Shown: positions 106 to 49,739 of the stretch, in pieces
How the letters are laid out: each line of letters opens with the position of its first letter
How positions within the stretch are numbered: the stretch's first letter is position 1
From: Bacteroidota bacterium
GTDB lineage: Bacteria > Bacteroidota > Bacteroidia > Bacteroidales > JACABE01
NCBI GenBank assembly: GCA_013377005.1
Contig: JACABE010000017.1
Location: forward strand, 9,096-73,095
Direction of reading: 5' to 3'
Length of the DNA: 64,000 nucleotides
The notes under the pieces: generated by a model
Database searches by the model: none
Seen by the model: the letters and a program-made list of their open reading frames with translations, nothing else
Told to the model about the DNA's origin: nothing
Made by a program: the position numbers and the translations under genes

Positions 106-121
106 ATTTTAAAAATTTAAA

Positions 122-739: not shown

Positions 740-753
740 AGTTTTAAATTTTA

Positions 754-2367: not shown

Positions 2368-2370
2368 TAC

Positions 2371-3141: not shown

Positions 3142-3151
3142 AACAATAGAT

Positions 3152-4057: not shown

Positions 4058-4068
4058 ATCTATTACAT

Positions 4069-5376
4069 TTATTTAGTTTCTTCAAGATGTTCTATCGTTT
4101 CATGAACAGGTATAATTGGAACCACTTTTGATAATATGGTAATAATAATAAGAACTAAAATTATAGGTGCCAGAGAAATAAGTGATTCTGTTAATGAAGG
4201 CGTATATATTTTGAAATTCATAGGTACGTTCTGGATAGGCAAAAATGGATGTTCCTGTGTAGGAATAACAATAATATATCTTTTTAACCATGCGCCGCAA
4301 ATTACAAATAAAGCAACAACCAGCATTGGTAAAGGTTTTCTCATTTTCTTAAAAAGAAGTAAAACGATGGGTAATACCAATCCAAAGATTTGTACAGACC
4401 AAAACAACAATGCATGAGTACCTGTGAATAAAGCATGTATATGCATGGCATCGAATTTTTTCATTTTATAACCCGGAACCATGTATTCATTCAAAGTAAA
4501 GTATAGGTAAATCAAGGAAACCAGTACCAAAAGCTTACCCATTTTATCAAAATGCTTTTCTGTAATATAATCCTGTAATTTGAAATTATTTCTATAGAAA
4601 AACATTGCAATAATAACGGCTGCAGAACCCGATACAAAAGCACCTGTTACAAAATAAGGTCCGAAAATACTGCTATCCCAACCTACCCTTGTAGTACTGG
4701 CAAATAACCATGATGTTACTGTATGAATAGCAAGTGCAACAGGAATAATCAAAATTGCAAGTATTCTAGTAGATTGCTTGATGATTTTAATTTGCTCCGG
4801 TGATCCAATCCAGTTTAAAGACAAAACTTTATAAATATTTCTTTTATAGGCAGGCAGTTGATTCATTTTATCATAACATATTTTCAAGTCAGGAATTAAA
4901 GGAACATATAAAAACAAAGCAGATATCAGCACATAAAAAGTAACAACAGTAACGTCCCATAAGATGGGAGACTGAATTCTTCCATAAAGAAAAACATTGA
5001 TTAACCTTTCCGGACGACCCATATCTGAAATAATTACCAAACCAGCTACTGCAGCAAAAGCCAATGCAATAATTTCTGCAATTCTGGCTAATGGTGATGC
5101 CCATTTTTCACCAGAAAGACCTAATACTGCACTAATTAACATTCCTATTAAACTGGTTGCAACAAAAAATACAAAGTTGGAGATATACATTCCCCAAGAT
5201 ACATAGTCGCGAAGACCTGTTACAACCATACCTTTATCAAGTTGAACTGAGTATGCATATAAACATACAATGAGAGAAACACCTAAAAATCCCATCCAAA
5301 CCATAAAGCTATGATTTATTCTGATGGGTTTAAGTAAATCGGATGTGATTTTGTCAAATTTTGATTGATCTAACAT
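4069..5376 (-). CDS. NrfD/PsrC-family polytopic quinol-interacting membrane subunit (ActC-like)
   Basis: 435 aa, about 10 predicted TM helices, directly downstream of a Tat-exported 4-cluster FeS protein. This is the canonical NrfC/NrfD or PsrB/PsrC pairing. Confidence 0.75.
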   Translation of the reverse strand: MLDQSKFDKITSDLLKPIRINHSFMVWMGFLGVSLIVCLYAYSVQLDKGMVVTGLRDYVSWGMYISNFVFFVATSLIGMLISAVLGLSGEKWASPLARIAEIIALAFAAVAGLVIISDMGRPERLINVFLYGRIQSPILWDVTVVTFYVLISALFLYVPLIPDLKICYDKMNQLPAYKRNIYKVLSLNWIGSPEQIKIIKQSTRILAILIIPVALAIHTVTSWLFASTTRVGWDSSIFGPYFVTGAFVSGSAAVIIAMFFYRNNFKLQDYITEKHFDKMGKLLVLVSLIYLYFTLNEYMVPGYKMKKFDAMHIHALFTGTHALLFWSVQIFGLVLPIVLLLFKKMRKPLPMLVVALFVICGAWLKRYIIVIPTQEHPFLPIQNVPMNFKIYTPSLTESLISLAPIILVLIIITILSKVVPIIPVHETIEHLEETK

Positions 5377-5385
5377 ATATATTAA

Positions 5386-6357
5386 TTATGAATTGTTAAT
5401 ATCTAAATGTTCTTCTGCTTCCAGTTTATCTTTATCCTGAAATGGGGCAGTTCTGTTTTTGGCAGGCAGGTAATAAACTCTTGTTTTAGTACCTAACTCT
5501 GGCATTAAACGATAACCGGCATTTTCTTCAAGTAACTTACTGAATCTAACTGTTTCCTTGGTAGTTCCGTTGGTTACTGCATCTTCATTTTCATCGCCAA
5601 AATAATAAACGCCATTCGGACAGGCAGAAACACAATAAGGCATTTTACCTTCTCGTAATCTATCAGCACTAAATAAACATTTACTTACAGTCCCTTTTCG
5701 CTGAGGAACATTTAATTCAACATTGTAGGTTTTATCCTTATCCTCTTCAGCAAGTAATGGTTCAGCCCAATTAAATACACGAGCGCTGTAGGGACAAGCT
5801 GCAATACAAAAACGACAGCCGATACATCTTTCATTATCAATTAAAACAATTCCATCAGGACGTTTGAAGGTAGCATCTACTGGACAAACAGCCACACAAG
5901 GAGGATTGTCGCAATGCTGGCATGGTTTTGCCATATAAAAAGGAGGAGTATTCTTCGACTCCTGCATTTTCAATACATTGATATGGTGTTGTTCTGGTCT
6001 CAGCTGATGTGCACCTTGACAAGCTGACATACATTTACGGGCATTTTTGCATTTTGATAAGTCAACAACCATTACCCATCGTTTTCCGGGTATTCCTTCT
6101 CTTCCTTCTTTTTGTAAAGCAGTTAGATTTTCTGCTTTCGATTTACCAACTTTGGTTGCATCATTTCTGTCAATTTCGAGAAGTTCGTTTTCGGCAGTCA
6201 ATACTTTTATACGAGCACCTGTTGATTTTTTCTTATCGTAATTTATCCCTGCTAGTATTGCAGATCCGGCTAATACAGACCCAACACCTACAATTCCAAC
6301 TTGTTGTATAAACTCTCTTCTTGATTTATTTTTCGGGTTTTCTTCTTTTTCACTCAT
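5386..6357 (-). CDS. Tat-exported 4Fe-4S ferredoxin-type subunit (NrfC/PsrB/HybA/ActB2-like)
   Basis: Twin-arginine signal SRREFIQQVG. Cys clusters: CKNARKCMSAC, CQHCDNPPCVAVCP, CIGCRFCIAACP and C..YCVSACP. Confidence 0.85.
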   Translation of the reverse strand: MSEKEENPKNKSRREFIQQVGIVGVGSVLAGSAILAGINYDKKKSTGARIKVLTAENELLEIDRNDATKVGKSKAENLTALQKEGREGIPGKRWVMVVDLSKCKNARKCMSACQGAHQLRPEQHHINVLKMQESKNTPPFYMAKPCQHCDNPPCVAVCPVDATFKRPDGIVLIDNERCIGCRFCIAACPYSARVFNWAEPLLAEEDKDKTYNVELNVPQRKGTVSKCLFSADRLREGKMPYCVSACPNGVYYFGDENEDAVTNGTTKETVRFSKLLEENAGYRLMPELGTKTRVYYLPAKNRTAPFQDKDKLEAEEHLDINNS

Positions 6358-8689: not shown

Positions 8690-9067
8690 ATGACTGAAAA
8701 TGAGATTTCAGAAAAGATAATCGGATGTGCAATCAAAGTTCATAAAGCACTTGGTCCAGGTTTATTAGAAAGTTCTTATCTTGAATGTCTTTATTATGAA
8801 TTACAGAAATCAGGTTTAAAAGTTGAAAAACAAAAAGCTTTACCTTTAATTTACAATGAAGTAAAATTAGAAATTGGATACCGTTTGGATTTGCTTGTTG
8901 AAGGCAAAGTTGTGGTTGAACTAAAAACAATTGAAGCATTAAATGATATCCATACAGCACAAGTAATTACCTATTTAAAATTATCTGCCTGTAAACTCGG
9001 ATTGCTTATGAACTTTAATGTATTACGCTTAATAGATGGTTTAAAAAGAATTGCAAATAATTTATAA
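8690..9067 (+). CDS. GxxExxY family protein (PD-(D/E)XK-like)
   Basis: 125 aa with GPGLLESSY (G-x-x-E-x-x-Y) near the N-terminus and the DLLVEGKVVVELK core typical of this family. Confidence 0.8.
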   Translation: MTENEISEKIIGCAIKVHKALGPGLLESSYLECLYYELQKSGLKVEKQKALPLIYNEVKLEIGYRLDLLVEGKVVVELKTIEALNDIHTAQVITYLKLSACKLGLLMNFNVLRLIDGLKRIANNL

Positions 9068-9074
9068 CTACTTG

Positions 9075-9710
9075 ATGCTAATATTTAAAAATTACTGTTC
9101 TAAGTCTTTGCGGCTCTCTACGAAACCCTTTGCGTTCTCTGCGGTTAAAATAATTATCATTCTTGCATTATCTCTAAATTCATTTAATGCTAAAAGTCAA
9201 GAAACACCTAAGCATTTCTTCACAGAAGTAGGTTTTAAAATCGGCATAAGTGCTTATAGTATTGAACTTCCCGAAGGACAAAACTACAAACCACTTTTAC
9301 TGATGGGCAACTTTGGTTGTGAGCTCACCAAAAAAGAGAGAAAAGGAAAATGGTGGGTAATGTTTGAACCTCAAATCAATCCTGTTTTTCTAGACAATAA
9401 ACTTAAAGAAGTGGAATTCGGCATCAATGTGGCTATAAGATATAAATATAAAATAGGAGCGAATTCATTTTTTTATAGCCAGTTAGGTTCTGGTCCGCAT
9501 TTTATCACTGTTTCTACTGATAGACAGGCGCACGGCTATATTTTTTCAGATAATTTGACAATTGGGTTAAGCAACAAAATTTTCGGTACCTGGAATTTGG
9601 ATACTGAATTTCGTATCCGTCATATTTCCAATGCCAATGTAATGAAACCTAATAGAGGGATGAATAATCTATTCATAGTTATTGGTATTTCGAAGAGAAT
9701 AAATAAATAA
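9075..9710 (+). CDS. acyloxyacyl hydrolase / PagL-like lipid A deacylase (start uncertain)
   Basis: Signal peptide KIIIILALSLNSFNAKSQ, a beta-barrel-like sequence, and the C-terminal RHISNAN His/Ser pair typical of PagL-type esterases. The only in-frame starts (ATG 9051, ATG 9075, TTG 9108) lie upstream of or inside the repeat array. Confidence 0.6.
   Translation: MLIFKNYCSKSLRLSTKPFAFSAVKIIIILALSLNSFNAKSQETPKHFFTEVGFKIGISAYSIELPEGQNYKPLLLMGNFGCELTKKERKGKWWVMFEPQINPVFLDNKLKEVEFGINVAIRYKYKIGANSFFYSQLGSGPHFITVSTDRQAHGYIFSDNLTIGLSNKIFGTWNLDTEFRIRHISNANVMKPNRGMNNLFIVIGISKRINK
9106..9146. repeat. right inverted repeat array flanking the GxxExxY cassette
   Basis: CTTTGCGGCTCTCTACGAAACCCTTTGCGTTCTCTGCGGTT. 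The reverse complement carries four CGCAGAG/CGCAAAG-like units and ends in AACCGCAGAG, as the left repeat does. Confidence 0.7.
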
Positions 9711-9876: not shown

Positions 9877-10656
9877 ATGAAAGTAGTTATTCTTGCCGGA
9901 GGGTTGGGTTCAAGATTGAGTGAAGAAACCACACTAAAACCAAAACCGATGGTTGAAATTGGAGGAAGACCAATACTTTGGCATATAATGAAAATATATT
10001 CTCATTATGGATATAATGACTTTATTATTTGTTGTGGCTATAAAGGCTATATGATAAAAGAATATTTTGCCAATTATTTTTTACACCAAGCAGATGTAAC
10101 TATTGATTTAAAACAAAACAAACTTGAAGTTCACCAATCTAATGTTGAGCCATGGAGAATTACATTAATTGATACCGGCCTCGATACAATGACGGGTGGA
10201 AGAATAAAAAAAATTCAGAAATACATAGGAAATGAACCATTTATGTTAACGTATGGAGATGGATTAGGGAATGTTAATATTAAAGAATTGGTCGAATTTC
10301 ATACTAAACAAAATAAACTTGCAACGGTTACTGTTGTTCAGCCTTCAGGCAGATTTGGGGCAATTCATTTTAATCAGGAAAATTCTGTTGAAATTTTTGC
10401 ATTTCAGGAAAAACCCAAAGGTGATAATACATGGATAAATGGAGGCTTTTTTGTTCTCCAACCGGAAGTGTTTGATTATATAAAAGATGGCGATTCCACA
10501 ATTTGGGAAAGAGAGCCATTAGAAACGCTGGCTAAAGACAAACAGCTTCACGCATTCAGGCATTATGGGTTTTGGAAACCTATGGATACTATTCGCGACA
10601 AAGAAGATTTAGAAGATTTATGGAAAACCGATAAATGCGACTGGAAATTATGGTAG
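9877..10656 (+). CDS. rfbF: glucose-1-phosphate cytidylyltransferase
   Basis: MKVVILAGGLGSRLSEET..KPKPMVEIGGRPILWHIM is the characteristic RfbF/DdhA N-terminus. 259 aa. Confidence 0.9.
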   Translation: MKVVILAGGLGSRLSEETTLKPKPMVEIGGRPILWHIMKIYSHYGYNDFIICCGYKGYMIKEYFANYFLHQADVTIDLKQNKLEVHQSNVEPWRITLIDTGLDTMTGGRIKKIQKYIGNEPFMLTYGDGLGNVNIKELVEFHTKQNKLATVTVVQPSGRFGAIHFNQENSVEIFAFQEKPKGDNTWINGGFFVLQPEVFDYIKDGDSTIWEREPLETLAKDKQLHAFRHYGFWKPMDTIRDKEDLEDLWKTDKCDWKLW

Positions 10657-11729
10657 AAAACATAAACAAACTTTTTTGGAAAGGGAAAAGAGTATTAATT
10701 ACAGGTCATACTGGTTTTAAAGGTTCCTGGCTTTGTTTGATATTGAAAGAAATGGATGCTGAAGTGTATGGCTACGCATTGGATCCTCCAACACAACCCA
10801 GTCTTTTCAAGGAAGCACATATTGAAAAACTTATAACATCTTCTATTGGAGATATCCGTGATTATGAAAAGTTTTCTAAATTTCTTTTATCAGTAAAACC
10901 TGATATTATTATACACATGGCGGCACAAGCACTAGTTCGGGAATCGTATAAAAATCCGGTGGAAACTTATGCGGTTAATGTGATGGGCACTGTTAATCTT
11001 TTTGAAGCTATTCGACATACGACAGGAATAAAAGCTGTAGTAAACGTAACTACTGATAAATGTTATGAAAACCGTGAGTGGCATTGGGGATATCGCGAGA
11101 ATGAGCCGATGGGTGGATATGACCCCTATTCTAACAGTAAAGGATGTTCAGAATTAGTAACAGCATCTTTCAGGAACTCATTCTTTAATTCAAAAGACTA
11201 TAGCAAACATGGTATTGCAATAGCCACAGCTAGAGCTGGAAATGTTATTGGTGGTGGCGACTGGGCTGAAGATCGATTGATACCCGATTTTATCAGAGCT
11301 ATTTCAAAAGGAGAAAAGTTAAAAATACGAAGTCCTTTTGCTATTCGTCCTTGGCAGCATGTATTAGAACCACTTTCGGGCTATCTTATCTTAGCCGAAA
11401 AACTATTTAATAACGGAGTTGAATTTGCCGAAGCTTGGAATTTCGGACCTGATGATAATGATGCCAAAAATGTAGAGTGGATTACCTCAAAAATGTGTAA
11501 GTTGTGGGGTGAAAATGCAGCTTACGAAATTGATAACAATCCACAACCTCACGAAGCAAATTATTTAAAATTAGATTGTTCTAAAGCAAAAAATATTTTA
11601 GATTGGCATCCTCGTTGGAATTTGGAACAATCATTATCTTATATTATTGATTGGAACAAATCATTTTTAAAAGGTGATGATATGCGGGAAGTGTGCAAAA
11701 TTCAAATACGTGAATATTTTAGATTTTAA
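10650..11729 (+). CDS. rfbG: CDP-glucose 4,6-dehydratase
   Basis: FWKGKRVLITGHTGFKGSWL Rossmann motif and YSNSK catalytic motif. The start was moved to the ATG at 10650, which overlaps the rfbF stop; the track ORF starts at 10635. Confidence 0.9.
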   Translation: MVENINKLFWKGKRVLITGHTGFKGSWLCLILKEMDAEVYGYALDPPTQPSLFKEAHIEKLITSSIGDIRDYEKFSKFLLSVKPDIIIHMAAQALVRESYKNPVETYAVNVMGTVNLFEAIRHTTGIKAVVNVTTDKCYENREWHWGYRENEPMGGYDPYSNSKGCSELVTASFRNSFFNSKDYSKHGIAIATARAGNVIGGGDWAEDRLIPDFIRAISKGEKLKIRSPFAIRPWQHVLEPLSGYLILAEKLFNNGVEFAEAWNFGPDDNDAKNVEWITSKMCKLWGENAAYEIDNNPQPHEANYLKLDCSKAKNILDWHPRWNLEQSLSYIIDWNKSFLKGDDMREVCKIQIREYFRF

Positions 11730-11744
11730 TAACTAAATAATACT

Positions 11745-13058
11745 ATGAGCGATATTAAAACACTCAGAAAAGAAATAATTGAAAAAACGATTGAATATTA
11801 CCAACTGAAATTTTCAAATAAAGAATTTATAGCTGGTAAAACCAAGGTAAACTATGCCGGAAGGGTTTTCGATGAAACAGAATTGGTAAATGCAGTAGAT
11901 GCATCATTAGATTTTTGGCTCACCGAAGGACGATTTACCGAAGAATTTGCAGAAAAAATCGCAGAGTTTTTGGGAATAGAACACGTTTTACTTACAAATT
12001 CAGGTTCTTCAGCCAACTTATTGGCTTTTTCTGCTCTTACTTCAGAAAAACTTGGAGAAAAACGATTGAAATCAGGAGATGAAGTAATTTCTGTTGCAGC
12101 AAGCTTTCCCGCTACAATTACACCCATCATTCAATATGGTTTAATTCCTGTTTTTGTAGATGTTGAAATACCTACCTACAATATTGATATTGAAATGATG
12201 CGTAAAGCCATCACACCTAAAACCCGATGCATCTTTCTTGCACATACTTTAGGAAATACATTTGATATTGATGCAATTATGCAAATAGCAAAAGAACATG
12301 ATTTATGGGTTATTGAGGATAATTGTGATTCTTTTGGGAGTAAATACAATGGCAAATTTACAGGCACATTCGGACATATATCTACAATTTCTTTTTATCC
12401 AGCTCATCATATTACCACAGGTGAGGGCGGTGCAATATGCACTAACGATCCATTGCTGGCAAATTTAATCAGAGCGTTTCGCGATTGGGGACGCGATTGT
12501 TATTGTGCAGGCGGTGAAAACAATACTTGTGGCAAAAGGTATACTCAACAATTTGGAGAATTACCTATCGGTTATGATCACAAATACGTTTATTCTGAAA
12601 TTGGATATAATTTAAAAATGACCGATATTCAGGCTGCAATTGGAGCTGCACAAATGAATAAATTAGCTGATTTCTGTGAAAAAAGAAGGTTACATTTTAA
12701 TGAATGGACACGGATTTTCTCCAAATTTTCCAACTATTTTATTTTACCAAATGCTACAGAAAAATCGGATCCTTCATGGTTTAGTTTTATAATTACTTTA
12801 AAAGATAACTGTCCGTTCACACGTGATGAAATAACAAAATATTTGGATCAAAATCTTATTGAAACACGTAATTTGTTTGCAGGAAACATTGTTAAACAGC
12901 CAGCTTTTATTCATAAAAAATGGCGAATTGCAGATCATCTCAAAAATACCGATTATATTATGAACAATACTTTCTTTTTAGGAACGTATCCGGGATTAAC
13001 AAAAGAGATGTTTGATTATGTTGAAAATGTAGTATCTGAATACATAAGAAAATTTTAA
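11745..13058 (+). CDS. rfbH: CDP-6-deoxy-L-threo-D-glycero-4-hexulose 3-dehydrase (E1, PMP and 2Fe-2S dependent)
   Basis: 437 aa DegT-fold protein. SFYPAHHITTGEGG has His where aminotransferases carry the Schiff-base Lys. An exact C-x57-C-x-C-x7-C spacing (NCDS...DCYCAGGENNTC) matches the E1 iron-sulfur motif. Confidence 0.9.
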   Translation: MSDIKTLRKEIIEKTIEYYQLKFSNKEFIAGKTKVNYAGRVFDETELVNAVDASLDFWLTEGRFTEEFAEKIAEFLGIEHVLLTNSGSSANLLAFSALTSEKLGEKRLKSGDEVISVAASFPATITPIIQYGLIPVFVDVEIPTYNIDIEMMRKAITPKTRCIFLAHTLGNTFDIDAIMQIAKEHDLWVIEDNCDSFGSKYNGKFTGTFGHISTISFYPAHHITTGEGGAICTNDPLLANLIRAFRDWGRDCYCAGGENNTCGKRYTQQFGELPIGYDHKYVYSEIGYNLKMTDIQAAIGAAQMNKLADFCEKRRLHFNEWTRIFSKFSNYFILPNATEKSDPSWFSFIITLKDNCPFTRDEITKYLDQNLIETRNLFAGNIVKQPAFIHKKWRIADHLKNTDYIMNNTFFLGTYPGLTKEMFDYVENVVSEYIRKF

Positions 13059-13063
13059 TAAAA

Positions 13064-13753
13064 ATGGCTATCGTTAAAAAATACCCGACAGAGATAGTCT
13101 CTATTGAACAACCAATAAAAGACATCTTTACTTTACAGATGAAATCATTGGGTGGTTCTTATAAATATGCTCCCGGTCAGTTTCTACATTTTGCATTAGA
13201 TGAATACGATCCAAGTTCCGGATGGCCGGAATCCCGTTGTTTTAGCATGCAATCCAGTGCAAAAGATGAATTGATTAAAATTACTTTTGCAGTGAAAGGT
13301 CGTTTTACAAAAAGAATGGCAACTGAATTGATGGCAGGTAGCTTGGTAACATTGAAACTACCTTACGGAGATTTATTTACACAAGAACATTGCAAAGAAA
13401 ATACTGTTTTTATTGCAGGAGGTACGGGCATTACACCATTTCTTTCGTTGTTTACAGACCCTGATTTTGCTTTTTACAAAAACCCTTTTTTATTTGCAGG
13501 CTTTCAAAACAAAGAATTAAATTTATATCATGATGAATTAAAGATTGCTATGCAAATCAATCCGAACCTTATAATAAACTATATTTATCAAGACAAACAA
13601 GGAATGTTGGATATTGCTAAAATCCTTAATAAAAGTGATAGCAAAAGCTCTTTCTTTATTTCAGGACCGCCTGAGATGATAAAAACGTTTAAAAAATATC
13701 TTATACAGCAAGAAATACACGAAAACCAAATTAAAACAGATGATTGGGAGTAA
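13064..13753 (+). CDS. FNR-type flavin reductase, E3 (AscD/DdhD)-like but lacking the ferredoxin domain
   Basis: 229 aa. RCFSMQS flavin-binding motif and GGTGITP nucleotide-binding motif. Only two Cys in the whole protein, so no plant-type 2Fe-2S site. Confidence 0.65.
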   Translation: MAIVKKYPTEIVSIEQPIKDIFTLQMKSLGGSYKYAPGQFLHFALDEYDPSSGWPESRCFSMQSSAKDELIKITFAVKGRFTKRMATELMAGSLVTLKLPYGDLFTQEHCKENTVFIAGGTGITPFLSLFTDPDFAFYKNPFLFAGFQNKELNLYHDELKIAMQINPNLIINYIYQDKQGMLDIAKILNKSDSKSSFFISGPPEMIKTFKKYLIQQEIHENQIKTDDWE

Positions 13754-14945
13754 AACAAAAATAAAAAACCTATTACGAAGTTGTCCAATTTGTGACAACA
13801 CCGATGGCGAAATACTTCATAACCAGCGATTTTTTTTGCCTGAAAACCACATTTTACCTTCCAATTATGATGTAGTTTGTTGTAATACTTGTGGCTTTGT
13901 CTTTGCTGACACTTCTGCAAACCAGAAGACATATAACATCTTTTATCAGGAAATGTCTAAATATGAAGATGTTAAAACAGCAAGTGGTGGTGGTGACAAA
14001 ACTTATGATTTATCACGTTTAAAAGAAACAGCTGAAGATATTGAAAACTTAATTCCATCAAAGAACAGTAGTATTCTTGATATTGGTTGTGGAAACGGTG
14101 GTTTGTTAATGGAACTAAAAAAATTGGGATTTACTAACTTAACAGGACTTGATCCTTCACCCGTTTGTGTAAATAATATTTTAAATAAGGGGATTGAAGC
14201 AAAATTAGGTGGAATTTTTAATATTAGTACATTAAATAAAAAGTATGATTTTATAATCTTCTCCCATGTGTTTGAACATTTAGTAGATATACAATCTGCC
14301 GTAAAAAACATCTCTGAATTATTAAGTCAAGATGGATTAGTTTATATTGAAACACCTGATGCTTCACTTTACTATGAGTTCTATGTTGCTCCTTTTCATT
14401 ATTTTGACATTGAACATATCAACCATTTCTGTTCAGTATCACTTATAAATATCTTCTCAAAATTTGATTATAATTGTAAAAAATCTGAACAAAAGAAAAT
14501 ACAAGTTTCTGAAACAGTAGAATACCCAGCTGTTTATTGTTGCTTTACGAAAAGCGATATTAATTCTTTTTCAACTTATAAAATTAATGATAATTTAAAA
14601 AAGAATATATTAAAATATATTCTTCGTTCAAATAATGAATTAATATTTCCTGAATTAATAGATTATGTAAATAATAAAACACCTGTAATCGTTTTTGGTG
14701 CAGGAAGTTTTACACTTAGCTTAATTGAGAACACTATTTTAGGTAAGTGCAATATTATTGCTTTTATTGACAATGACTCAAAGAAACAAGGAAATATTAT
14801 TAATGGAATTTGTGTTTATGGAAAGGAATTTCTTTATAAATCAGATGCTGTGATTATTATTTGTTCAGCTCTATTTAGTTTCGAAATTGAACAGGAAATC
14901 AAATCAATGTGCATTAAGAATCGAATTCTAAAAATAAACACATAA
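13740..14945 (+). CDS. SAM-dependent methyltransferase with N-terminal 4-Cys zinc ribbon and C-terminal Rossmann-like domain (possible NDP-hexose C-methyltransferase type)
   Basis: CPICD...CCNTCG zinc ribbon, ILDIGCGNGG SAM motif, C-terminal VIVFGAGSFT...IAFIDND domain. 401 aa. Confidence 0.65.
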   Translation: MIGSKTKIKNLLRSCPICDNTDGEILHNQRFFLPENHILPSNYDVVCCNTCGFVFADTSANQKTYNIFYQEMSKYEDVKTASGGGDKTYDLSRLKETAEDIENLIPSKNSSILDIGCGNGGLLMELKKLGFTNLTGLDPSPVCVNNILNKGIEAKLGGIFNISTLNKKYDFIIFSHVFEHLVDIQSAVKNISELLSQDGLVYIETPDASLYYEFYVAPFHYFDIEHINHFCSVSLINIFSKFDYNCKKSEQKKIQVSETVEYPAVYCCFTKSDINSFSTYKINDNLKKNILKYILRSNNELIFPELIDYVNNKTPVIVFGAGSFTLSLIENTILGKCNIIAFIDNDSKKQGNIINGICVYGKEFLYKSDAVIIICSALFSFEIEQEIKSMCIKNRILKINT

Positions 14946-14990
14946 AGTACAGAACTTGCTAAAAATAAGCTTGTTTATAACCATTAAAAG

Positions 14991-16073
14991 ATGAAAGAAG
15001 AAATGAATTTTAAAAATGAAATAAGTGAAAACCAATTTTATATTTTTGGTGCCGGAAATACTGCAATTAAAGTGATGCAAGTGCTACAAAATACTGGCAA
15101 ATCAATAGCTTCTTTCATTGTAACTTCCAAACCAAACTTTCCTGAAATAAACAATATTAGGGTTATTGAACTTAAGGAAACATCAACTTTAGATAAAAAT
15201 ATACCCATAATAATCGCCATTTTTAATAGAGAACCTAATGCGTTTTTGCAAGATATTATCACAAACCTAAAATCCTTTGGTTTTAATAAAATCCTGACTT
15301 ATCCCGAATTTCATTCTTTTTTTTCAGCACAATTGGGTGATACAGTTTGGCTGACCGATAAAAACTATTATTCCAAGAATATTGGAAAATATTTGAATGT
15401 TCAGAAATTATTTAAAGATCCAATAAGCATAGACACCTATTCAATAATAATTGAGTATTTAAAAACCTTTGATCCATCTTTTTTAATAAAGCCTGATTTT
15501 AAAAATCAATATTTTCCCTTAGATATAGACGTTTGGGATGGAAAGGGGGCATTTTATGATATTGGTTCGTTTGATGGTGAAAATATTTTTGATGCATATA
15601 AAGCAAAAGGTCAGCTTGATCTTGTTATTGCTTTTGAACCTGAAATGGATAACTTCCAAAAAATTGTAAATAATACGAAGTTAAAAGATAATATTACAAA
15701 CCAATTGTTTATTTATCCTTGTGGTGTTTGGTCAGAAACAACGATGCTTAAATTTGAGACTGGCGTGGGCGAGAGTTCATCTTACAGCGAACACGGCAAT
15801 CAAATAATCCCAGTTGTAAAAATTGACGAAATTATCCACACTTATCCCGGTTACTTAAAAATGGATATTGAGGGTGCTGAAATTGAAGCTTTGCTGGGGG
15901 CTAAAAAAACTATTTGTAAATATAAACCTTCATTAGCCATCAGTATTTATCATAAACCCGATCATATTTATAGTATTCCTGAACTAATTGATAGTTGGGA
16001 TTTAGGATACAATTTTTATATTCGGTTTCATGGTAATAATCTTATTGATACAGTTTTATATTGTATTCAATAA
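14991..16073 (+). CDS. FkbM-family methyltransferase with N-terminal Rossmann-like domain
   Basis: N-terminal FYIFGAGNTAIKV, then FkbM hallmarks FYDIGSFDGEN, IAFEPE, KMDIEGAEIEALLGA. Confidence 0.7.
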   Translation: MKEEMNFKNEISENQFYIFGAGNTAIKVMQVLQNTGKSIASFIVTSKPNFPEINNIRVIELKETSTLDKNIPIIIAIFNREPNAFLQDIITNLKSFGFNKILTYPEFHSFFSAQLGDTVWLTDKNYYSKNIGKYLNVQKLFKDPISIDTYSIIIEYLKTFDPSFLIKPDFKNQYFPLDIDVWDGKGAFYDIGSFDGENIFDAYKAKGQLDLVIAFEPEMDNFQKIVNNTKLKDNITNQLFIYPCGVWSETTMLKFETGVGESSSYSEHGNQIIPVVKIDEIIHTYPGYLKMDIEGAEIEALLGAKKTICKYKPSLAISIYHKPDHIYSIPELIDSWDLGYNFYIRFHGNNLIDTVLYCIQ

Positions 16074-16085
16074 CAAAAATAATCA

Positions 16086-17123
16086 ATGAAAAAATCTCTT
16101 CAAAACGATCTCGATTATATATTTAATAAAACAAGCCATTTGGTTAACGAATTGGATGGCAAAACAATTTTTATAACTGGTGGAACTGGTTTCATAGGGA
16201 AATGCATACTTGAATATTTTCTTTGGCTTAACCAGTATAAATCTATTACGTTTAATATTATTGTATTATCGCGTAATCCTGATTATTTTTTAGGAAAATT
16301 CCCTAAATTTATTGTCCCCTTTATTCAATTTGTAAAAGGAGATGTAACAGAATTCGATTATTCCAAATTGCCTCATAGTGATATTATTATACATGCTGCT
16401 ACCGAAGCTGATGCAAAGCTAAATCACGAGCAACCGCTTAAAATGATAAATACAATTGTCGAGGGTACAAGAAAAGTGTTCGATTATGGGGTGAAAGTTA
16501 AATCGCAAAAAGTTTTATATTTAAGCAGTGGTGCTGTTTATGGCGTTCAACCCGATAATATAGTTGGATTTTCAGAGAATTATTATGGTGGACCTAATGT
16601 TCTCAATACAGCTTCGGCTTATTCCGAGGCAAAACGGTTTTCTGAACTCTATTGTTCTTGTTATCAGAAACAATATCAGATGAATGTTGTTATAGCTCGC
16701 TGTTTTGCATTTGTAGGTCCATACTTGCCATTAGACATGCACTTTGCAATTGGCAATTTTATTGGAAACGGCTTAAAAGGCGAGGATATAATCATTAAAG
16801 GAAATGGGAGCCCTCTTCGTTCTTATATGTATGCTGCTGATTTAGTGATTTGGTTATTATATGCATTACTCAGAGGTGAAAGCGGACAAGCATATAATAT
16901 TGGATCTGAAAAATCATTATCTATTAAAGAATTAGCTATAGAGGTTGCTAAATTTTTTCCGAAGTTGTCTGTTAAAATTTTAGGCGAATCTAACCCAACC
17001 GATAGGAATCAGAACTATATTCCATGTATTAAAAAAATTAAGACAGAATTGGCAGTGCCTGAAATATTATCACTTCAGGAGGCTATTGGTAGAACAATAA
17101 TGTTTCATACATCTGATGAGTAA
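16086..17123 (+). CDS. NAD-dependent epimerase/dehydratase-family (extended SDR) sugar-nucleotide reductase/epimerase
   Basis: FITGGTGFIGKC Rossmann motif and YSEAK (YxxxK) catalytic motif. 345 aa. Confidence 0.8.
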   Translation: MKKSLQNDLDYIFNKTSHLVNELDGKTIFITGGTGFIGKCILEYFLWLNQYKSITFNIIVLSRNPDYFLGKFPKFIVPFIQFVKGDVTEFDYSKLPHSDIIIHAATEADAKLNHEQPLKMINTIVEGTRKVFDYGVKVKSQKVLYLSSGAVYGVQPDNIVGFSENYYGGPNVLNTASAYSEAKRFSELYCSCYQKQYQMNVVIARCFAFVGPYLPLDMHFAIGNFIGNGLKGEDIIIKGNGSPLRSYMYAADLVIWLLYALLRGESGQAYNIGSEKSLSIKELAIEVAKFFPKLSVKILGESNPTDRNQNYIPCIKKIKTELAVPEILSLQEAIGRTIMFHTSDE

Positions 17124-17772
17124 TTTTGAAAACATAATATTTGATTTTGATGGAACTTTGGTTGATTCTCAGGCTGATATAAAAGATTCCTTAAAAGCTG
17201 CTATTTATAAAATTAAAGGTGTTAATATTGATAGTTCTTCTTTTAAAATCGGACCTCCCTTAGAAGAAATGATAAAAACAATTTTAATAAATATCTCGCA
17301 AGATGAAACGAATAAGATTGTAAACAGCTTTAGGGCAATCTATAACGAAAGTGGATTTAATAAAACATTTTGTTACAGAGGGATTGAAAATCTATTAAAA
17401 ACCTTAAAAGAAACAAATAAACGTATTTATATTGCCACTAATAAGCCGGAAAATTTAACAAAAAAAATAATAAAAAAACTTAATATTGACTTTTTTGATG
17501 ATATTTGTACTGTTGACAAAATTGAAGGTGTCTTTTTATTAAAAAAAGAAATGATATCTTTGCTGATTAAAAAAAATAAACTTAATCGAAAAACAACGCT
17601 GATGATTGGTGATAGTGCATCAGATGTAAGATCTGGAAGAGAAAATGATATTACAACCATCGGTGTTGGTTATGGTTATGGAATTAGGGAGGAAATAATT
17701 AAAGCAATTCCAGATTTTTATTTTGATACAACACAGCAATTAATTGATTTTTTAATACACCAACCAAATTAA
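17116..17772 (+). CDS. HAD-IA family phosphatase (phosphoglycolate phosphatase-like)
   Basis: HAD motifs FDFDGTLVDS (I), ATNK (II/III) and GDSASD (IV). Confidence 0.8.
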   Translation: MSNFENIIFDFDGTLVDSQADIKDSLKAAIYKIKGVNIDSSSFKIGPPLEEMIKTILINISQDETNKIVNSFRAIYNESGFNKTFCYRGIENLLKTLKETNKRIYIATNKPENLTKKIIKKLNIDFFDDICTVDKIEGVFLLKKEMISLLIKKNKLNRKTTLMIGDSASDVRSGRENDITTIGVGYGYGIREEIIKAIPDFYFDTTQQLIDFLIHQPN

Positions 17773-17779
17773 ATTATAT

Positions 17780-18871
17780 ATGAACCGTGATATTTTTGAA
17801 GATTTATTTGTGCTTGAAATGGCCAATAATCACTGGGGGAGTCTTGACAGAGGACTGAAAATTATTAATGCTTTTGGACAGATTGTTCGTTTTAATAATG
17901 TTCAGGCAGCAATAAAATTGCAATTTAGAGATGTTGATAATTTTATTCATAAAGATTTTCAAAAAAGGGATGATATTCGATATATTAAAAAAACAATCGA
18001 TACAAAATTGTCAAAAGAAAATTTGGCTATTTTAGTAAATAATATTCGTAAAGCAGGATGTATTCCAATGACCACTCCTTTTGATGAAGCTTCTGTTGAT
18101 TTAGGTATGGAATTAGGGATTCAATTATTTAAAATAGCAAGTTCTGATTTAAACGACTGGCCACTGATTGAAAAAATTGCAAAAACAAAAAAACCTGTAA
18201 TAGTATCAACAGGGGGTTCTTCTGTAAAAGATCTTGACGATTTAGTTACTTTTTTTGAGAATAGAAATATTCCACTTGCAATAAATCATTGCGTTTCTCT
18301 TTATCCTTCTGAAGATTCTAATCTAGAAATCAATCAAATAGATTTTTTAAAAAATCGTTATCCAAATCATACCATAGGTTATTCAACCCACGAATATCAT
18401 TCATGGGATTATTCGTTGATGATTGCTTATGCAAAAGGTGCCCGAACTTTTGAAAGACATATTGATATCGAAGATGGAGGTATAAGTGTTGCACCATACT
18501 GCTCTTTACCCCATCAAATTGATACTTGGTTTAAATCATTTCATAAGGTGAAAGAAATGTGTGGCAATAGTGGTACTACCAAAAGAATACCACCCAAAGA
18601 AGAGATTCAATATCTTGATGCTCTGGTACGAGGAGTTTATGTTAAAAGAGATTTACCCGAAGGTTATGTAATTAAGCATGAAACTATCGATAATGACATT
18701 TATTTGGCAATTCCTTTGCAAAAAGGACAAATATCTTGTCGTGAGCTAATGTCGGGTGAAGTTTTATTAAGAGCTATGAAAAAGGACGAACCAGTAATGA
18801 TTGATACAATTGACAGTCCTTATTCTTATAATGAATCATTAAAACAACAAATTTATAATCGTGGCATATAA
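17780..18871 (+). CDS. NeuB/SpsE-family PEP-dependent aldol-type synthase with C-terminal SAF-like domain
   Basis: 363 aa. N-terminal LEMANNHWGS aligns with the NeuB IAEIGxNHxG motif, followed by a TIM-barrel-like region and a C-terminal RDLPEG...GE SAF-type segment. Confidence 0.65.
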   Translation: MNRDIFEDLFVLEMANNHWGSLDRGLKIINAFGQIVRFNNVQAAIKLQFRDVDNFIHKDFQKRDDIRYIKKTIDTKLSKENLAILVNNIRKAGCIPMTTPFDEASVDLGMELGIQLFKIASSDLNDWPLIEKIAKTKKPVIVSTGGSSVKDLDDLVTFFENRNIPLAINHCVSLYPSEDSNLEINQIDFLKNRYPNHTIGYSTHEYHSWDYSLMIAYAKGARTFERHIDIEDGGISVAPYCSLPHQIDTWFKSFHKVKEMCGNSGTTKRIPPKEEIQYLDALVRGVYVKRDLPEGYVIKHETIDNDIYLAIPLQKGQISCRELMSGEVLLRAMKKDEPVMIDTIDSPYSYNESLKQQIYNRGI

Positions 18872-20685
18872 TGATTAGAATCTCTGATTTTATTTTTAAA
18901 TATCTTGAAGAATATGGAATTGAAGATATTTTTATGATTACTGGTGGTGGAGCAATGCACCTGAATGATGCTTTGAGTAGAAATAAAAAAATAAACTATA
19001 TCTGTAATCATCATGAGCAAGCTTCAGCAATTGCAGCTGAAGGATATGCAAGAATTGCGAATAAACTTGCAGTTGTTGTTGTTACAAGTGGTCCCGGTGG
19101 TACAAATACACTAACTGGTTTGATTGGCCAATGGCTTGATTCTGTTCCGGTTTTATATATTTCGGGTCAGGTAAAATTTGAAACTACAATTGCTTCATGC
19201 CCTGAGTTAAACCTTCGTCAATTGGGCGATCAGGAAATAAATATTATTGATATTGTGAAACCAGTGACTAAATATGCCACTATGCTTACAGATCCAAAAA
19301 CTGTTAGGCAAGAATTGGATAAAGCCATCCATTTTGCAACTTCGGGAAGACCTGGTCCTGTTTGGATTGATGTGCCACTTAATGTTCAAGGTGCATATAT
19401 TGATGAAACACAAATTCTTGATTCGAAAATTGAAAAGGAAGAACTTTTTGACTCTTCCTTAGCCTTAAATCAAATTGAAGAGTTAGCATCGTTAATAGTA
19501 AAAGCCGAACGTCCACTTTTTCTTGCCGGTAATGGATTACGAAATGCTCATGCTACTAAACAATTTATTGATTTGATTGAGAAAACAGGTATTCCTGTTG
19601 TTACTTCTTTTCTTGGATGTGATATTATCGAAACCGATTCTCCTTTGTTTGCAGGTCGAATCGGAACCATTGGAAATCGAGCAGGTAATTTTGCTATTCA
19701 AAATGCTGATCTTTTAATATCAATAGGTTCACGCAATAATATTCGACAAACTAGTTATAACTGGCAGTGGTTTGCACGTGGAGCCAAGAAAGTTGTTGTA
19801 GATATTGACAAAGCAGAACTTTTAAAACCCACATTTAAACCAGATATTCCTATTCAATGTGATGCTTTATTTTTTGTAGATAGCTTAACCAAAACCATCA
19901 ATACTAAAACTTTACCTGATTTTTCGAAATGGGTTGAATGGTGCGGAGAACGAAAAAATAAATATTCAGCTTACTTGCCCGAGTATGCTAATTTAAAAGA
20001 ATTGGTACACCCCTATCACTTCATACAGAAACTTACGGAGGCTCTGAAAGAGAATGATATTATTACCACTGGTAATGCAACACCCAGCATTGCATATCAT
20101 CAATTAGGAATTGTGAAGAAAAAACAGCGTATTCTTTGGAACTCAGGTTGTGCATCAATGGGTTATGGTTTGTCAGCAGCAATAGGAGCTGCTTTTGCTT
20201 CCCACAAAAAACAAAATGTTATTTGTTTGGAAGGTGATGGAAGTTTGCAAATGAATATTCAGGAGTTACAAACTATTGTCTATTATCAATTACCTATTAA
20301 ACTGTTTATTTTAGACAATCGCTGTTATATTTCTATTAAACAAACACAAACAAACCTATTTAATAGTCATTTTGTTGGCGTAGATGTTGCAAATGGAGTT
20401 TCATTCCCTGATTTTACGAAAATATCAGAAGCTTATGGATTAAAAACTTTTACTATAGAAAATCATGATAATATTGAGACTATTATTGCAGAGGTTCTTG
20501 AAATTTCAGGTCCCGTTGTTTGTCATGTTAAACTGACGAATGATTATATTTTTTCGCCTAAAACATCTTCTAAAAAACTTCCTGATGGTCGATTAGTATC
20601 GGCTCCTCTGGAAGATATGTTCCCATTTTTGGACAGAGATGAATTTATGAGTAATATGATTATTAAACCTATCGACACCGAATGA
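18871..20685 (+). CDS. thiamine diphosphate-dependent acetolactate-synthase-like enzyme (YerE-like candidate)
   Basis: 604 aa with three-domain ALS architecture and a GDGSLQMNIQEL ThDP-binding motif (GDG-x24-27-N type). Confidence 0.85.
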   Translation: MIRISDFIFKYLEEYGIEDIFMITGGGAMHLNDALSRNKKINYICNHHEQASAIAAEGYARIANKLAVVVVTSGPGGTNTLTGLIGQWLDSVPVLYISGQVKFETTIASCPELNLRQLGDQEINIIDIVKPVTKYATMLTDPKTVRQELDKAIHFATSGRPGPVWIDVPLNVQGAYIDETQILDSKIEKEELFDSSLALNQIEELASLIVKAERPLFLAGNGLRNAHATKQFIDLIEKTGIPVVTSFLGCDIIETDSPLFAGRIGTIGNRAGNFAIQNADLLISIGSRNNIRQTSYNWQWFARGAKKVVVDIDKAELLKPTFKPDIPIQCDALFFVDSLTKTINTKTLPDFSKWVEWCGERKNKYSAYLPEYANLKELVHPYHFIQKLTEALKENDIITTGNATPSIAYHQLGIVKKKQRILWNSGCASMGYGLSAAIGAAFASHKKQNVICLEGDGSLQMNIQELQTIVYYQLPIKLFILDNRCYISIKQTQTNLFNSHFVGVDVANGVSFPDFTKISEAYGLKTFTIENHDNIETIIAEVLEISGPVVCHVKLTNDYIFSPKTSSKKLPDGRLVSAPLEDMFPFLDRDEFMSNMIIKPIDTE

Positions 20686-20741
20686 TAATAAACTTTATAA
20701 GGTAATTTTTCAAAAGAAAAAATTCTATAATACGAATCAAA

Positions 20742-21686
20742 ATGAAGAAAAGAATTTCTATTTTTACCCCATGTTATAATGAAGAAGAGAATGTTGAAAT
20801 CCTTTATAATGAAGTAAAAAAGGTTTTTGAACAACTTCCTCAATATGATTACGAGCATGTATTTATCGACAACAATTCTCAGGACAAAACAGTAGAAATT
20901 CTTAAAAGAATTGCCAATCAGGACAAAAAAGTTAAAATCATTGTGAACGCCCGTAATTTCGGACATATTCGCTCGCCATACCATGGTTTACTTCAGACTA
21001 CCGGAGATTGTGTGATTTCTGTTGTTGCTGATTTACAAGATCCACCGGAACTCATTCCTGAATTCCTTAAAAAATGGGAAGAAGGTTATAAGATTGTTAC
21101 TGCTGTAAAAAAGAAATCAAGAGAAAATCCATTAATGTTTTTATTGAGGAAGATTTATTATAACATTCTTGCAAAATTTTCTGAAGGAGAGCAAATTAAA
21201 AATTTTACTGGTTTTGGACTTTACGATAAGTCTTTTCTTGATATTATTCGTAAAATTGATGATCCCTATCCTTATTTTAGAGGTCTGATTTCAGAAGTAG
21301 GCTTTCAAAATACTTCTGTTGAATACACCCAGCCTAAAAGATTACACGGTAAAACAAAAAACAACTTTTATACTCTTTATGACGTAGGAATGTTAGGTTT
21401 TGTTAATCACTCTAAATTACCGTTAAGACTTGCTAGTTTTATTGGTTTTACTGTTGCTTTAATCAGTTTATTTGTTGCAATAGCTTATTTTGTTTATAAA
21501 CTAATTTATTGGGATGAATTTAAAGTTGGAACGGCACCCTTGGTTATTGGATTATTCTTTTTTTCATCCATTCAACTTTTTTTTATTGGTATTATTGGTG
21601 AATACATTGGAGCTATTCATACCCAAGTAAGAAAACGGCCTTTGGTTATTGAAAAAGAACGGATTAATTTTGACGAAACAATTTAA
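20742..21686 (+). CDS. GT2 polyprenyl-phosphate glycosyltransferase (GtrB/ArnC-like)
   Basis: ISIFTPCYNEEEN, IDNNSQD and ADLQDP motifs, plus two C-terminal TM helices, as in GtrB/ArnC/DPM1-type enzymes. Confidence 0.85.
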   Translation: MKKRISIFTPCYNEEENVEILYNEVKKVFEQLPQYDYEHVFIDNNSQDKTVEILKRIANQDKKVKIIVNARNFGHIRSPYHGLLQTTGDCVISVVADLQDPPELIPEFLKKWEEGYKIVTAVKKKSRENPLMFLLRKIYYNILAKFSEGEQIKNFTGFGLYDKSFLDIIRKIDDPYPYFRGLISEVGFQNTSVEYTQPKRLHGKTKNNFYTLYDVGMLGFVNHSKLPLRLASFIGFTVALISLFVAIAYFVYKLIYWDEFKVGTAPLVIGLFFFSSIQLFFIGIIGEYIGAIHTQVRKRPLVIEKERINFDETI

Positions 21687-21741
21687 ATAAGTTAGTATAA
21701 AGAAATAATGCATTATAAAGATTAATTAATAGGCATTTTTA

Positions 21742-22164
21742 ATGATTGAATCTGTCAACAGAATAAAAGAGTTAGTTAAAAGTGGTTTCGATTTAAAAAT
21801 TGTTAGATTTTTTTTTGTGGCTGGTATTAATACAGCGTTTGGCTATGGAGTTTTTGTTTTGTTTCTGCTTATTGGGTTACATTATGTTTTAGCAGGATTT
21901 TTGGCTACAGTAATAGGTATATTTTTTAACTTTAAAACATACGGAATACTTGTTTTTAAAAATAAAAGTAACAAATTAATATTAAGGTTTTTATTTGTAT
22001 ATTTTGTTACTTACTGTGTTGCAATTTCTTTTATTTGGGCATTTTCGCTAGTGAACGTAAACCATTACATCGCTTCAGCTATTATTGCAATTCCGAACGC
22101 CTTGTTAGGCTACTATTTAAATAAAAAATTGGTTTTTGAAAATAAAATAGCACAAAAACTATAA
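21742..22164 (+). CDS. GtrA-family small membrane protein (putative polyprenyl-P-sugar translocation component)
   Basis: 140 aa, four TM helices, RFFFVAGINTAFGYGVF start and a C-terminal LNKKLVF motif typical of GtrA. Confidence 0.75.
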   Translation: MIESVNRIKELVKSGFDLKIVRFFFVAGINTAFGYGVFVLFLLIGLHYVLAGFLATVIGIFFNFKTYGILVFKNKSNKLILRFLFVYFVTYCVAISFIWAFSLVNVNHYIASAIIAIPNALLGYYLNKKLVFENKIAQKL

Positions 22165-22216
22165 GTTAATATAAATTTGCATTCTTAATTTGCATTCAAA
22201 TTCATCTACTTAAAAT

Positions 22217-27742: not shown

Positions 27743-27748
27743 AATTTT

Positions 27749-49619: not shown

Positions 49620-49685
49620 TTTTTTAATCCCACAACTTTTGAGACTGATCCCAAAATTCATCGTCTACCATATCATCCACTACAA

Positions 49686-49724: not shown

Positions 49725-49739
49725 TCGTTTAGTTAAACG

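Follow-up and report, generated by a model that had tools for sequence, protein, structure and literature searches.

The question raised by the locus described here is which sugar it makes, and from what donor the branch of that sugar is built. The locus lies in a stretch of 64,000 nucleotides from a Bacteroidota bacterium of the order Bacteroidales (assembly GCA_013377005.1, contig JACABE010000017.1, positions 9,096 to 73,095; this whole stretch is called the window, and positions below are counted from its first letter), where the genes rfbF, rfbG and rfbH share one strand with a gene for a thiamine diphosphate (ThDP)-dependent enzyme. An earlier note, made from the DNA letters, had predicted a yersiniose-like sugar carrying a two-carbon branch taken from pyruvate. 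Here we report that the locus is a real, coherent biosynthetic unit, and that the operon very probably makes a methylated, carbon-branched 3,6-dideoxy sugar that is moved over the membrane on a lipid carrier. We go further and propose, at a probability of roughly 55%, that the 13 co-directional genes at 9877-25000 (15 kb) form one biosynthetic and delivery unit, which builds a nucleotide-activated, C-4-branched, methylated 3,6-dideoxyhexose with a branch longer than two carbons and delivers it to the envelope.

Ten open reading frames (ORFs), all on the forward strand, occupy 9877-20685 with intergenic gaps of -22 to +45 nt, and the co-directional string runs on past the ThDP gene to 25000 with genes for a GT2 glycosyltransferase, a GtrA-family protein and a GT-C glycosyltransferase with tetratricopeptide repeats (TPRs; Table 1). 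The ORF layout and domain searches agree with the earlier note that rfbFGH, the ThDP enzyme, a short-chain dehydrogenase/reductase (SDR) and two methyltransferases are encoded in one operon. All the genes it named are present, but its list was incomplete, omitting an FNR-type reductase, a HAD phosphatase and a NeuB-family protein, and the extent it gave (9877-20685) falls three genes short of the unit.

The precursor is the firmest part of the pathway. RfbF, RfbG and RfbH were named earlier on sequence features, and all three score above their NCBIfam equivalog cut-offs. RfbH has SFYPAHHITTGEGG at aa 216-229, with His in place of the aminotransferase Schiff-base Lys, and a C194-x57-C252-x-C254-x7-C262 [2Fe-2S] spacing; both had been put forward as signatures of E1, and both are exact. 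The His-for-Lys exchange and the Cys motif set the Fe-S, pyridoxamine phosphate-dependent E1 apart from DegT-type aminotransferases and from ColD. The module for CDP-4-keto-3,6-dideoxyglucose is thus present as claimed, by equivalog-level matches and E1 motifs. (A separate candidate, "DegT504", was dropped, as it is RfbH with an N-terminal ORF extension.) The 229-aa reductase encoded next to rfbH, an arrangement kept in three related loci (L024, L019 and L085), consists of FAD and NAD domains only, contains 2 Cys, and has generic PDB matches to FNR-type reductase domains; by Pfam search and Cys count it is without the N-terminal plant-type [2Fe-2S] ferredoxin domain of the canonical E3/AscD/DdhD. 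A homologue occurs in only 5 of the 82 related loci listed below. We infer that it may do the job of E3, though it is not a canonical E3. Going by family membership, RfbF, RfbG, RfbH (E1) and this reductase would together make CDP-4-keto-3,6-dideoxy-D-glucose.

The enzyme expected to act on the C-4 ketone of this intermediate is the 604-aa ThDP protein. It contains HHEQ (with E49, the cofactor-activating Glu) and LEGDGS...LDN (the GDG-x(24-27)-N motif), and its best PDB match is JanthE (8rph; 420 bits, E 1e-124, residues 2-596 of 604, 35% identity), as against 252 bits and 32% identity for acetohydroxyacid synthase (AHAS) I of E. coli. JanthE of Janthinobacterium sp. HH01 (8rph, 8rpi, 8rpj) joins non-activated ketones to 2-oxo acids that range from C3 to branched C6 (PMC12188165, PMC12247030); its ThDP motif reads CDG where the window enzyme has GDG (PMC12247030). 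A C-terminal extension (SPK...PLED) common to JanthE is invariant in the clade of the window enzyme, and its invariant Lys, K564, aligns with the JanthE engineering hotspot K567 within one residue of numbering. The earlier note had proposed that grouping with acetolactate synthases would overturn its reading; by PDB match JanthE stands nearer to the enzyme than AHAS I does. Its score against the AHAS equivalog TIGR00118 is 379 bits, below the cut-off of 538, the AHAS motif RFDDR reads RNNIR, and no AHAS small subunit is encoded near the ThDP gene, so that acetolactate synthase was ruled out. The label "YerE-like" holds in that JanthE, and not AHAS, is the nearest characterised relative, but not in the narrower sense, since PpYerE is no closer than AHAS I. 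A tree of the family contains three references only (JanthE, PpYerE and IlvB), and the placement of PpYerE versus AHAS in it is fixed by the rooting and uninformative. Membership among the ketone-accepting, YerE-like carboligases is supported by the likeness to JanthE and by gene context, and with it the core of the earlier proposal, a YerE-like branching of the CDP-3,6-dideoxy pathway. Homologues of the enzyme at 46-60% identity occur in many phyla, including archaea.

What does this carboligase use as donor? In the pathways to erwiniose, caryophyllose and gastriose the donor, a 4-hydroxy-2-oxo acid, comes from a pyruvate aldolase of the same cluster, after which a YerE-like enzyme joins it to CDP-4-keto-3,6-dideoxyglucose and a YerF-like SDR reduces the product; ErwE, the carboligase of the first of these, rejects pyruvate (Steitz et al. 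2022, PMC9306805). A yersiniose pathway is recognized by a cluster that has no dedicated keto-acid-forming enzyme, and the window locus differs from it in having genes for a HAD phosphatase and a NeuB-like synthase directly upstream of the ThDP gene. The NeuB-like protein lies far below the equivalog cut-offs of its family (118.7 bits against 399.65 for NeuB; 113.9 against 340.25 for PseI), and its best PDB match, 3g8r, is a structure without assigned function; judged by these scores, it is not NeuB or PseI. It contains STHE and ERH, candidate metal-binding His motifs that would correspond to those of NeuB. Domain and family searches of the operon proteins found no CMP-ulosonate synthetase. 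The HAD protein scores 110 bits with a phosphoglycolate-phosphatase-like profile (cut-off 225) and has only generic PDB relatives. The pairing of the two resembles that of sugar-phosphate synthases with their phosphatases, which suggests a phosphorylated aldehyde as substrate and dephosphorylation afterwards.

Gene neighbourhoods bear most directly on the donor. From the matches listed in species-representative genomes we took 80 ThDP-anchored loci, to which a protein look-up added 3 (one a duplicate) for a total of 82; the 80 do not include the genome of the window itself. Neighbours were scored by BLASTP with the proteins of the window, and 55 of the 82 loci have at least 4 kb on either side and are counted as complete. 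All counts on ThDP-anchored loci refer to this list. RfbF, RfbG and RfbH are found in 41, 43 and 40 of the 55 complete loci, so that about 75% carry these genes beside the ThDP enzyme, and one or other SDR type is present in 45. Within about 3 kb of the ThDP gene, 38 of the 55 have an HpcH/HpaI aldolase, 16 a NeuB-like gene, 2 both and 3 neither. Over all 82 loci, 50 of which have the aldolase, the two partners are mutually exclusive (odds ratio 0.019, p 2.5e-10), and they are interspersed in the ThDP tree; there has therefore been repeated exchange between them. A reciprocal search for orthologues of the NeuB-like protein in metagenome contigs (67-74% identity) gave 32 loci with at least 3 kb on either side: the ThDP enzyme is encoded within 3.4 kb in 31 of them, the HAD phosphatase is present in 22, the FkbM methyltransferase in 16 and the aldolase in 1.

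Other genes follow the two partners. In the ThDP-anchored loci FkbM co-occurs with the NeuB-like gene (odds ratio 16.8, p 1.6e-4), and the SDR type of the window (SDR345) and a 294-aa SDR type (SDR294) are nearly mutually exclusive beside the ThDP enzyme (p 3e-5). In aldolase-type cassettes a DHQ-synthase-like (DHQS-like) protein and a 221-aa SDR (SDR221) are never found one without the other (28 of 28) and hardly ever beside the HAD phosphatase; the listed loci with this pair include L001, L005, L007, L013-L016, L019 and L024. The two may supply the aldehyde substrate by another route.

The exchange can be seen at a single chromosomal site. Locus L024, from an uncultured Bacteroidales metagenome-assembled genome (MAG), occupies the same site as the window locus, with flanking genes 66-94% identical. 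Its order begins with LysRS, PagL-like, RfbF, RfbG, RfbH, reductase and zinc-ribbon methyltransferase and ends with GT2, GtrA, GT-C/TPR, DUF6973 and PTPS; the middle consists of SDR294, a ThDP enzyme (54% identity), the HpcH aldolase, SDR221 and the DHQS-like protein, a cassette that stands in place of the FkbM, SDR345, HAD, NeuB-like and ThDP genes of the window. Another Bacteroidales MAG (L085) has the exact arrangement of the window at 85-98% identity, the zinc-ribbon methyltransferase excepted (70%). The locus can therefore be divided into three: modules for the core sugar and for delivery, both conserved, and between them a branch module that is exchangeable.

Since a NeuB-type reaction, phosphoenolpyruvate (PEP) plus an aldehyde, gives the product class of the aldolase irreversibly, its standing in for the aldolase points to a donor longer than pyruvate, probably a 4-hydroxy-2-oxo acid as in the erwiniose and caryophyllose pathways. 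We consider a long branch made by the NeuB-like route more likely than the two-carbon yersiniose branch. The prediction of a pyruvate-derived, two-carbon branch probably errs in branch length, as it leaves aside the NeuB-like and HAD genes that are tied to the ThDP gene in place of an aldolase.

The alternative that survives best keeps the pyruvate. The ThDP enzyme would add a two-carbon unit from it and the SDR would reduce the acetyl branch, giving a methylated yersiniose-type sugar, while the NeuB-like and HAD proteins would provide the glycan with an ulosonic acid as a further, separate constituent. YerE and YerF carry out exactly such steps on the same intermediate (PMC9306805, PMC12247030), pyruvate is among the donors of JanthE (PMC12188165), and free ulosonic acids are the normal products of NeuB-family enzymes, with NeuB and PseI as the next-best family matches here. 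We nevertheless regard this explanation as unlikely: the NeuB-like subfamily stands beside the ThDP enzyme in all but one of the 32 reciprocal loci, its alternation with a pyruvate aldolase fits a shared role in donor supply, its scores fall far below both cut-offs, and the operon has no CMP-ulosonate synthetase with which a free ulosonic acid would be activated.

The remaining enzymes of the operon are consistent with further decoration of a keto-sugar. The earlier note had likened the zinc-ribbon methyltransferase to the three-domain TcaB9/TylC3 type, and at the level of fold this guess stands up. Its AlphaFold2 (AF2) model (pLDDT 92.3) finds MtmC, KijD1 and TcaB9 as the top 18 Foldseek matches (E 1e-20 to 4e-18, TM 0.62-0.70, about 410-440 aligned columns), and the next matches, at E 1e-11 and after a gap of nine orders in E-value, cover the ordinary methyltransferase core only. 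A profile of the family reaches MtmC at E 9e-9. C15, C18, C48 and C51 are invariant in an N-terminal CxxC...CxxC zinc-ribbon pattern, and the invariant H176/H180 and E225-H226 fall near the TcaB9 numbering (H181, E224/H225) with an alignment shift of about one residue, as a candidate match to its catalytic His and Glu-His residues. The protein gives no match to Pfam PF08421 or PF08484 even at E up to 5, nor are NCBIfam equivalents, a few of its homologues have a precomputed PF08484 match, and its C-terminal part scores as a Rossmann-like "C2185-like_N" or WbpM-N-like domain. L024 retains this gene in spite of its different branch cassette, which suggests that the methyltransferase acts on the shared keto-sugar core. 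Between the window (13740-14945) and L085 (1521-2729) it is 70% identical, with neighbouring genes at 92-98%, which suggests that it diverges fast or was exchanged separately. The second methyltransferase, also named earlier, is of the FkbM family by both domain matches. For the extended SDR the nearest PDB match is generic (UXS, 7e-29); a YerF-like role is putative, on the ground that one of two SDR types accompanies the ThDP enzyme.

How would such a sugar leave the cytoplasm? The three genes downstream of the ThDP gene encode, side by side, the components by which Gtr/Arn/Pgf-type systems are recognized: a GT2 enzyme with C-terminal transmembrane (TM) helices, a GtrA protein and a GT-C enzyme. 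The GT2 enzyme has two such helices and scores 195 bits as PgfS and 127 bits as ArnC, both below cut-offs; homologues at 50-90% identity are found in 39 of the 82 listed ThDP-anchored loci, across phyla, including one 69% identical in a Vulcanimicrobiota locus. The GtrA protein has roughly three to four hydrophobic segments. The 927-aa GT-C protein has about 10 TM helices at aa 238-616 and a weak PMT_2 match, its homologues are named GT39 or carry PF02366/PF13231, and its AF2 model (pLDDT 82) matches STT3 (9.5e-7), ArnT (1.3e-5, TMt 0.49) and TPR proteins by Foldseek. Taken together, these sequence features suggest that polyprenyl phosphate takes over the sugar and that attachment happens on the periplasmic side of the membrane. 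The GT-C protein also has an N-terminal cytoplasmic alpha/beta domain (aa 25-190, window 22217-22900); some homologues of 950 aa score Glycos_transf_2 at this domain, and many of 700 aa are without it. It may be a degenerate, fused GT-A domain.

Table 1. The 13 genes of the proposed unit, with positions in the window.
Predicted product	Position	Strand	Domain or profile match
rfbF, glucose-1-phosphate cytidylyltransferase (makes CDP-glucose)	9877-10656	+	TIGR02623 equivalog, 428 bits (cut-off 300)
rfbG, CDP-glucose 4,6-dehydratase	10635-11729	+	TIGR02622 equivalog, 518 bits (cut-off 278)
rfbH/E1, CDP-6-deoxy-4-keto-glucose 3-dehydrase	11745-13058	+	NF011936, 684 bits (cut-off 423)
229-aa FNR-type FAD/NAD(P)H reductase, putative E3 substitute	13064-13753	+	Pfam NAD_binding_1, FAD_binding_8
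Methyltransferase (401 aa), four-Cys zinc ribbon, TcaB9/KijD1/MtmC-type fold, putative keto-sugar C-methyltransferase	13740-14945	+	
FkbM-family methyltransferase, probably O-methylation	14991-16073	+	PF05050, TIGR01444
Extended SDR, putative YerF-equivalent reductase of the branch C-1' ketone	16086-17123	+	Pfam Epimerase
HAD-IA phosphatase, DxDGT motif	17116-17772	+	Pfam HAD_2
NeuB-family PEP-condensing synthase, uncharacterised subfamily, putative donor supplier	17780-18871	+	PF03102 (2e-38)
YerE-like (JanthE-clade) ThDP carboligase (604 aa)	18871-20685	+	PF02776, PF00205, PF02775; JanthE match
GtrB/ArnC/PgfS-like GT2, putative polyprenyl-phosphate:branched-sugar transferase	20742-21686	+	PF00535
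GtrA-family small membrane protein, putative flippase	21742-22164	+	PF04138
927-aa GT-C (GT39/PMT-like) glycosyltransferase, N-terminal cytoplasmic domain, C-terminal TPRs	22217-25000	+	

These observations can be drawn together in one pathway. The NeuB-like synthase would form a 3-deoxy-4-hydroxy-2-oxo acid from PEP and an aldehyde, the latter probably a phosphorylated intermediate of central metabolism, and the HAD phosphatase would take off the phosphate. The ThDP enzyme would decarboxylate the keto acid and let the acyl carbanion so formed attack the CDP-sugar at its C-4 ketone, yielding a tertiary alcohol that bears a polyhydroxyacyl branch longer than two carbons, and the extended SDR would then reduce the C-1' ketone of the branch in the manner of YerF. 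Methylation may follow two courses: the TcaB9-fold enzyme would C-methylate beside a ketone, either in the ring of the shared 4-keto intermediate or in the branch, and the FkbM enzyme would O-methylate. The GtrB-like GT2 would move the finished sugar to undecaprenyl phosphate, GtrA would flip it across the membrane, and the GT-C/TPR enzyme would attach it to a periplasmic acceptor, either lipopolysaccharide (LPS) or a glycoprotein.

Several points weigh against this pathway. To our knowledge, no NeuB-family enzyme has been described as a donor supplier for a ThDP carboligase, and GtrB-type enzymes are known with UDP- or GDP-sugars but not with CDP-sugars. The length of the branch cannot be predicted, as it depends on which aldehyde the NeuB-like synthase takes. 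The HAD phosphatase also occurs with aldolases in ThDP-anchored loci, and it may act before or after the condensation. The co-occurrence statistics treat the loci as independent, though the loci are related. The ThDP enzyme is only 35% identical to JanthE and 31% identical to PpYerE (5ahk), the latter value no higher than the 32% for AHAS I, and the physiological substrates of JanthE are themselves unknown (PMC12188165).

The order of the two carbon-carbon bond-forming steps could also be the reverse of the one we propose. The ThDP enzyme would install a short carbonyl branch, or the 4-ketone itself would be attacked, and the NeuB-like enzyme or the aldolase would extend with PEP or pyruvate, leaving a 2-oxo-acid or carboxylate end of the shewanellose type. 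This chemistry is feasible, and shewanellose has a pyruvate-derived C-4 branch with a retained carboxamide. Such an order is improbable in our estimation, as it leaves the HAD phosphatase without an obvious role, and known NeuB enzymes act on free aldoses or aldose phosphates and not on nucleotide-sugars. Aldolase action after the ThDP step was a formal alternative in Steitz et al. as well, and for ErwE it was excluded by experiment, since pyruvate is not accepted (PMC9306805). A plain 3,6-dideoxyhexose, made by the SDR as an ordinary C-4 reductase while the ThDP enzyme decarboxylates the NeuB or aldolase product to a deoxy-aldehyde or makes an acyloin and never acts on the CDP-sugar, would agree with the generic similarity of the SDR to nucleotide-sugar SDRs and with the equal distance of the ThDP enzyme from AHAS and PpYerE, but is highly doubtful given that the closest characterised enzyme is a ketone-accepting carboligase, that some three quarters of the complete loci have RfbF, RfbG and RfbH beside the ThDP enzyme, and that characterised clusters of this composition all give C-4-branched sugars (PMC9306805).

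A long, C-4-linked branch supplied by the NeuB-like synthase is thus the reading we prefer for the window, and it may extend well beyond it. In its broad form, which we hold tentatively and at somewhat less than even odds, a new NeuB-family subfamily has been recruited with a HAD phosphatase as dedicated supplier of keto acid, from PEP and probably a sugar phosphate, to YerE-like carboligases; the result would be higher-carbon, C-4-branched, C- and O-methylated sugars on polyprenyl phosphate, made by a widespread system that swaps with the aldolase cassette. An even stranger version would have the NeuB-like enzyme act on the nucleotide-sugar itself and leave a carboxylated branch. YerE-like clusters have been mined in silico before (PMC12247030), and a survey of this kind covers more than 200 of them. 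The earlier note held such a sugar to be not described for this phylum. The gene set is not unusual there, since homologous clusters occur in many Bacteroidota genomes (Gabonibacter, with an aldolase-type locus, L023, in G. massiliensis GM7; Mucilaginibacter; Cyclobacteriaceae; Flavobacteriales; Bacteroidales MAGs), even if we came upon no reported glycan structure; a literature search that did not extend to Krug et al. 2024 or Lanza et al. 2024 brought up neither the NeuB-type variant nor a sugar of this kind from the phylum.

The setting of the locus adds some detail. A PagL-like gene (lipid A 3-O-deacylase family, TTG start) lies directly upstream of rfbF on the same strand (9051-9710) and is kept there in L024 (79% identity); this neighbour may hint at LPS or lipid A as the target of the sugar. 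Upstream of it, at 8690-9067, is a small PD-(D/E)XK (PF13366) gene, whose counterparts stand between rfbH and the reductase gene in L024 (6722-7111) and L019 (7813-8193); this small gene seems to be mobile or to change place freely within the locus. A possible Bacteroidetes-type TAnnTTTG element upstream of rfbF was noted by eye only, and scans for sigma-70 promoters and terminators did no better than on shuffled sequence and were not used. G+C content, overall and at third codon positions (GC and GC3), does not clearly mark the cassette as foreign. The window also encodes a component of the type IX secretion system, and the relatives closest to it are Bacteroidales MAGs, which bears out the assignment to Bacteroidota. 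Genes for cytochrome c oxidase subunits, an NrfD/4Fe-4S pair (alternative complex III-like) and a cytochrome bd oxidase lie at 1-6357 and 26570-29335, and this Bacteroidales organism therefore likely respires oxygen. An ISL3-family transposase, a Fic-domain protein and a type IV secretion coupling protein (TraG/TrwB-like) at 48684-57019 suggest that the second half of the window holds an integrated conjugative element unrelated to the sugar locus.

Yersiniose, erwiniose, caryophyllose and other C-branched higher sugars are rare and antigenic and are difficult to pick up by chemical analysis, and prediction from genes is currently the main route to finding them. The locus indicates a second route of donor supply for such sugars, PEP-dependent and NeuB-like in place of a pyruvate aldolase, in a cassette that many phyla commonly carry, gut and environmental Bacteroidota among them, and it would link the sugar to lipid-carrier/GT-C delivery rather than to a Wzx/Wzy O-antigen locus. 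The ThDP enzyme and the NeuB-like synthase may be viewed as candidate catalysts for chiral tertiary alcohols and functionalised 2-oxo acids, and the swap of cassettes at a fixed chromosomal site as a natural experiment in surface-glycan variation.

Among known systems, the window locus is closest in plan to the long-branch pathways of erwiniose (ErwI/J-ErwE-ErwF), caryophyllose (MMAR_2331-2332) and gastriose (MygI-MyGE-MygF), with which it shares the genes for CDP-4-keto-3,6-dideoxyglucose (PMC9306805), a clustered enzyme forming a 4-hydroxy-2-oxo acid (here putative), a YerE-like carboligase and an SDR. The cluster of R. palustris also has a SAM methyltransferase, as the window does (PMC9306805), and that of M. 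marinum has an HpcH/HpaI aldolase, as do most relatives of the window ThDP enzyme (50 of the 82 listed loci). Unlike these pathways, the window has a PEP-dependent NeuB-family synthase and a HAD phosphatase instead of the pyruvate aldolase, two methyltransferases, one of them of TcaB9 fold, and apparent GtrB/GtrA/GT-C routing. With the yersiniose A pathway of Yersinia pseudotuberculosis O:VI (YerE/YerF) it has in common the acceptor intermediate, the ThDP class and an SDR, whereas YerE uses pyruvate for a two-carbon branch and needs no keto-acid-forming partner.

The single modules have their own counterparts. The zinc-ribbon methyltransferase resembles the NDP-hexose C-3 methyltransferases TcaB9, KijD1 and MtmC in its three-domain fold and N-terminal four-Cys zinc site, and differs from them in being only 14-16% identical and in having a CDP- rather than a dTDP-linked context. 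The adjoining genes for a NeuB-family TIM barrel and a HAD phosphatase recall the Neu5Ac-9-P and KDN-9-P synthases and their phosphatases; unlike those sialic-acid-type pairs, the NeuB-like protein of the window has no CMP-activating enzyme with it and is the dedicated neighbour of a ThDP carboligase. The delivery module, finally, is built like GtrA/GtrB/GtrC, ArnC/ArnEF/ArnT and PgfS/PgfM of S. mutans, with a GT2 enzyme bearing two C-terminal TM helices, a GtrA protein and a GT-C enzyme, and departs from these systems in the CDP-linked branched deoxysugar that we propose as donor and in a GT-C enzyme with a cytoplasmic N-terminal domain and a TPR array.

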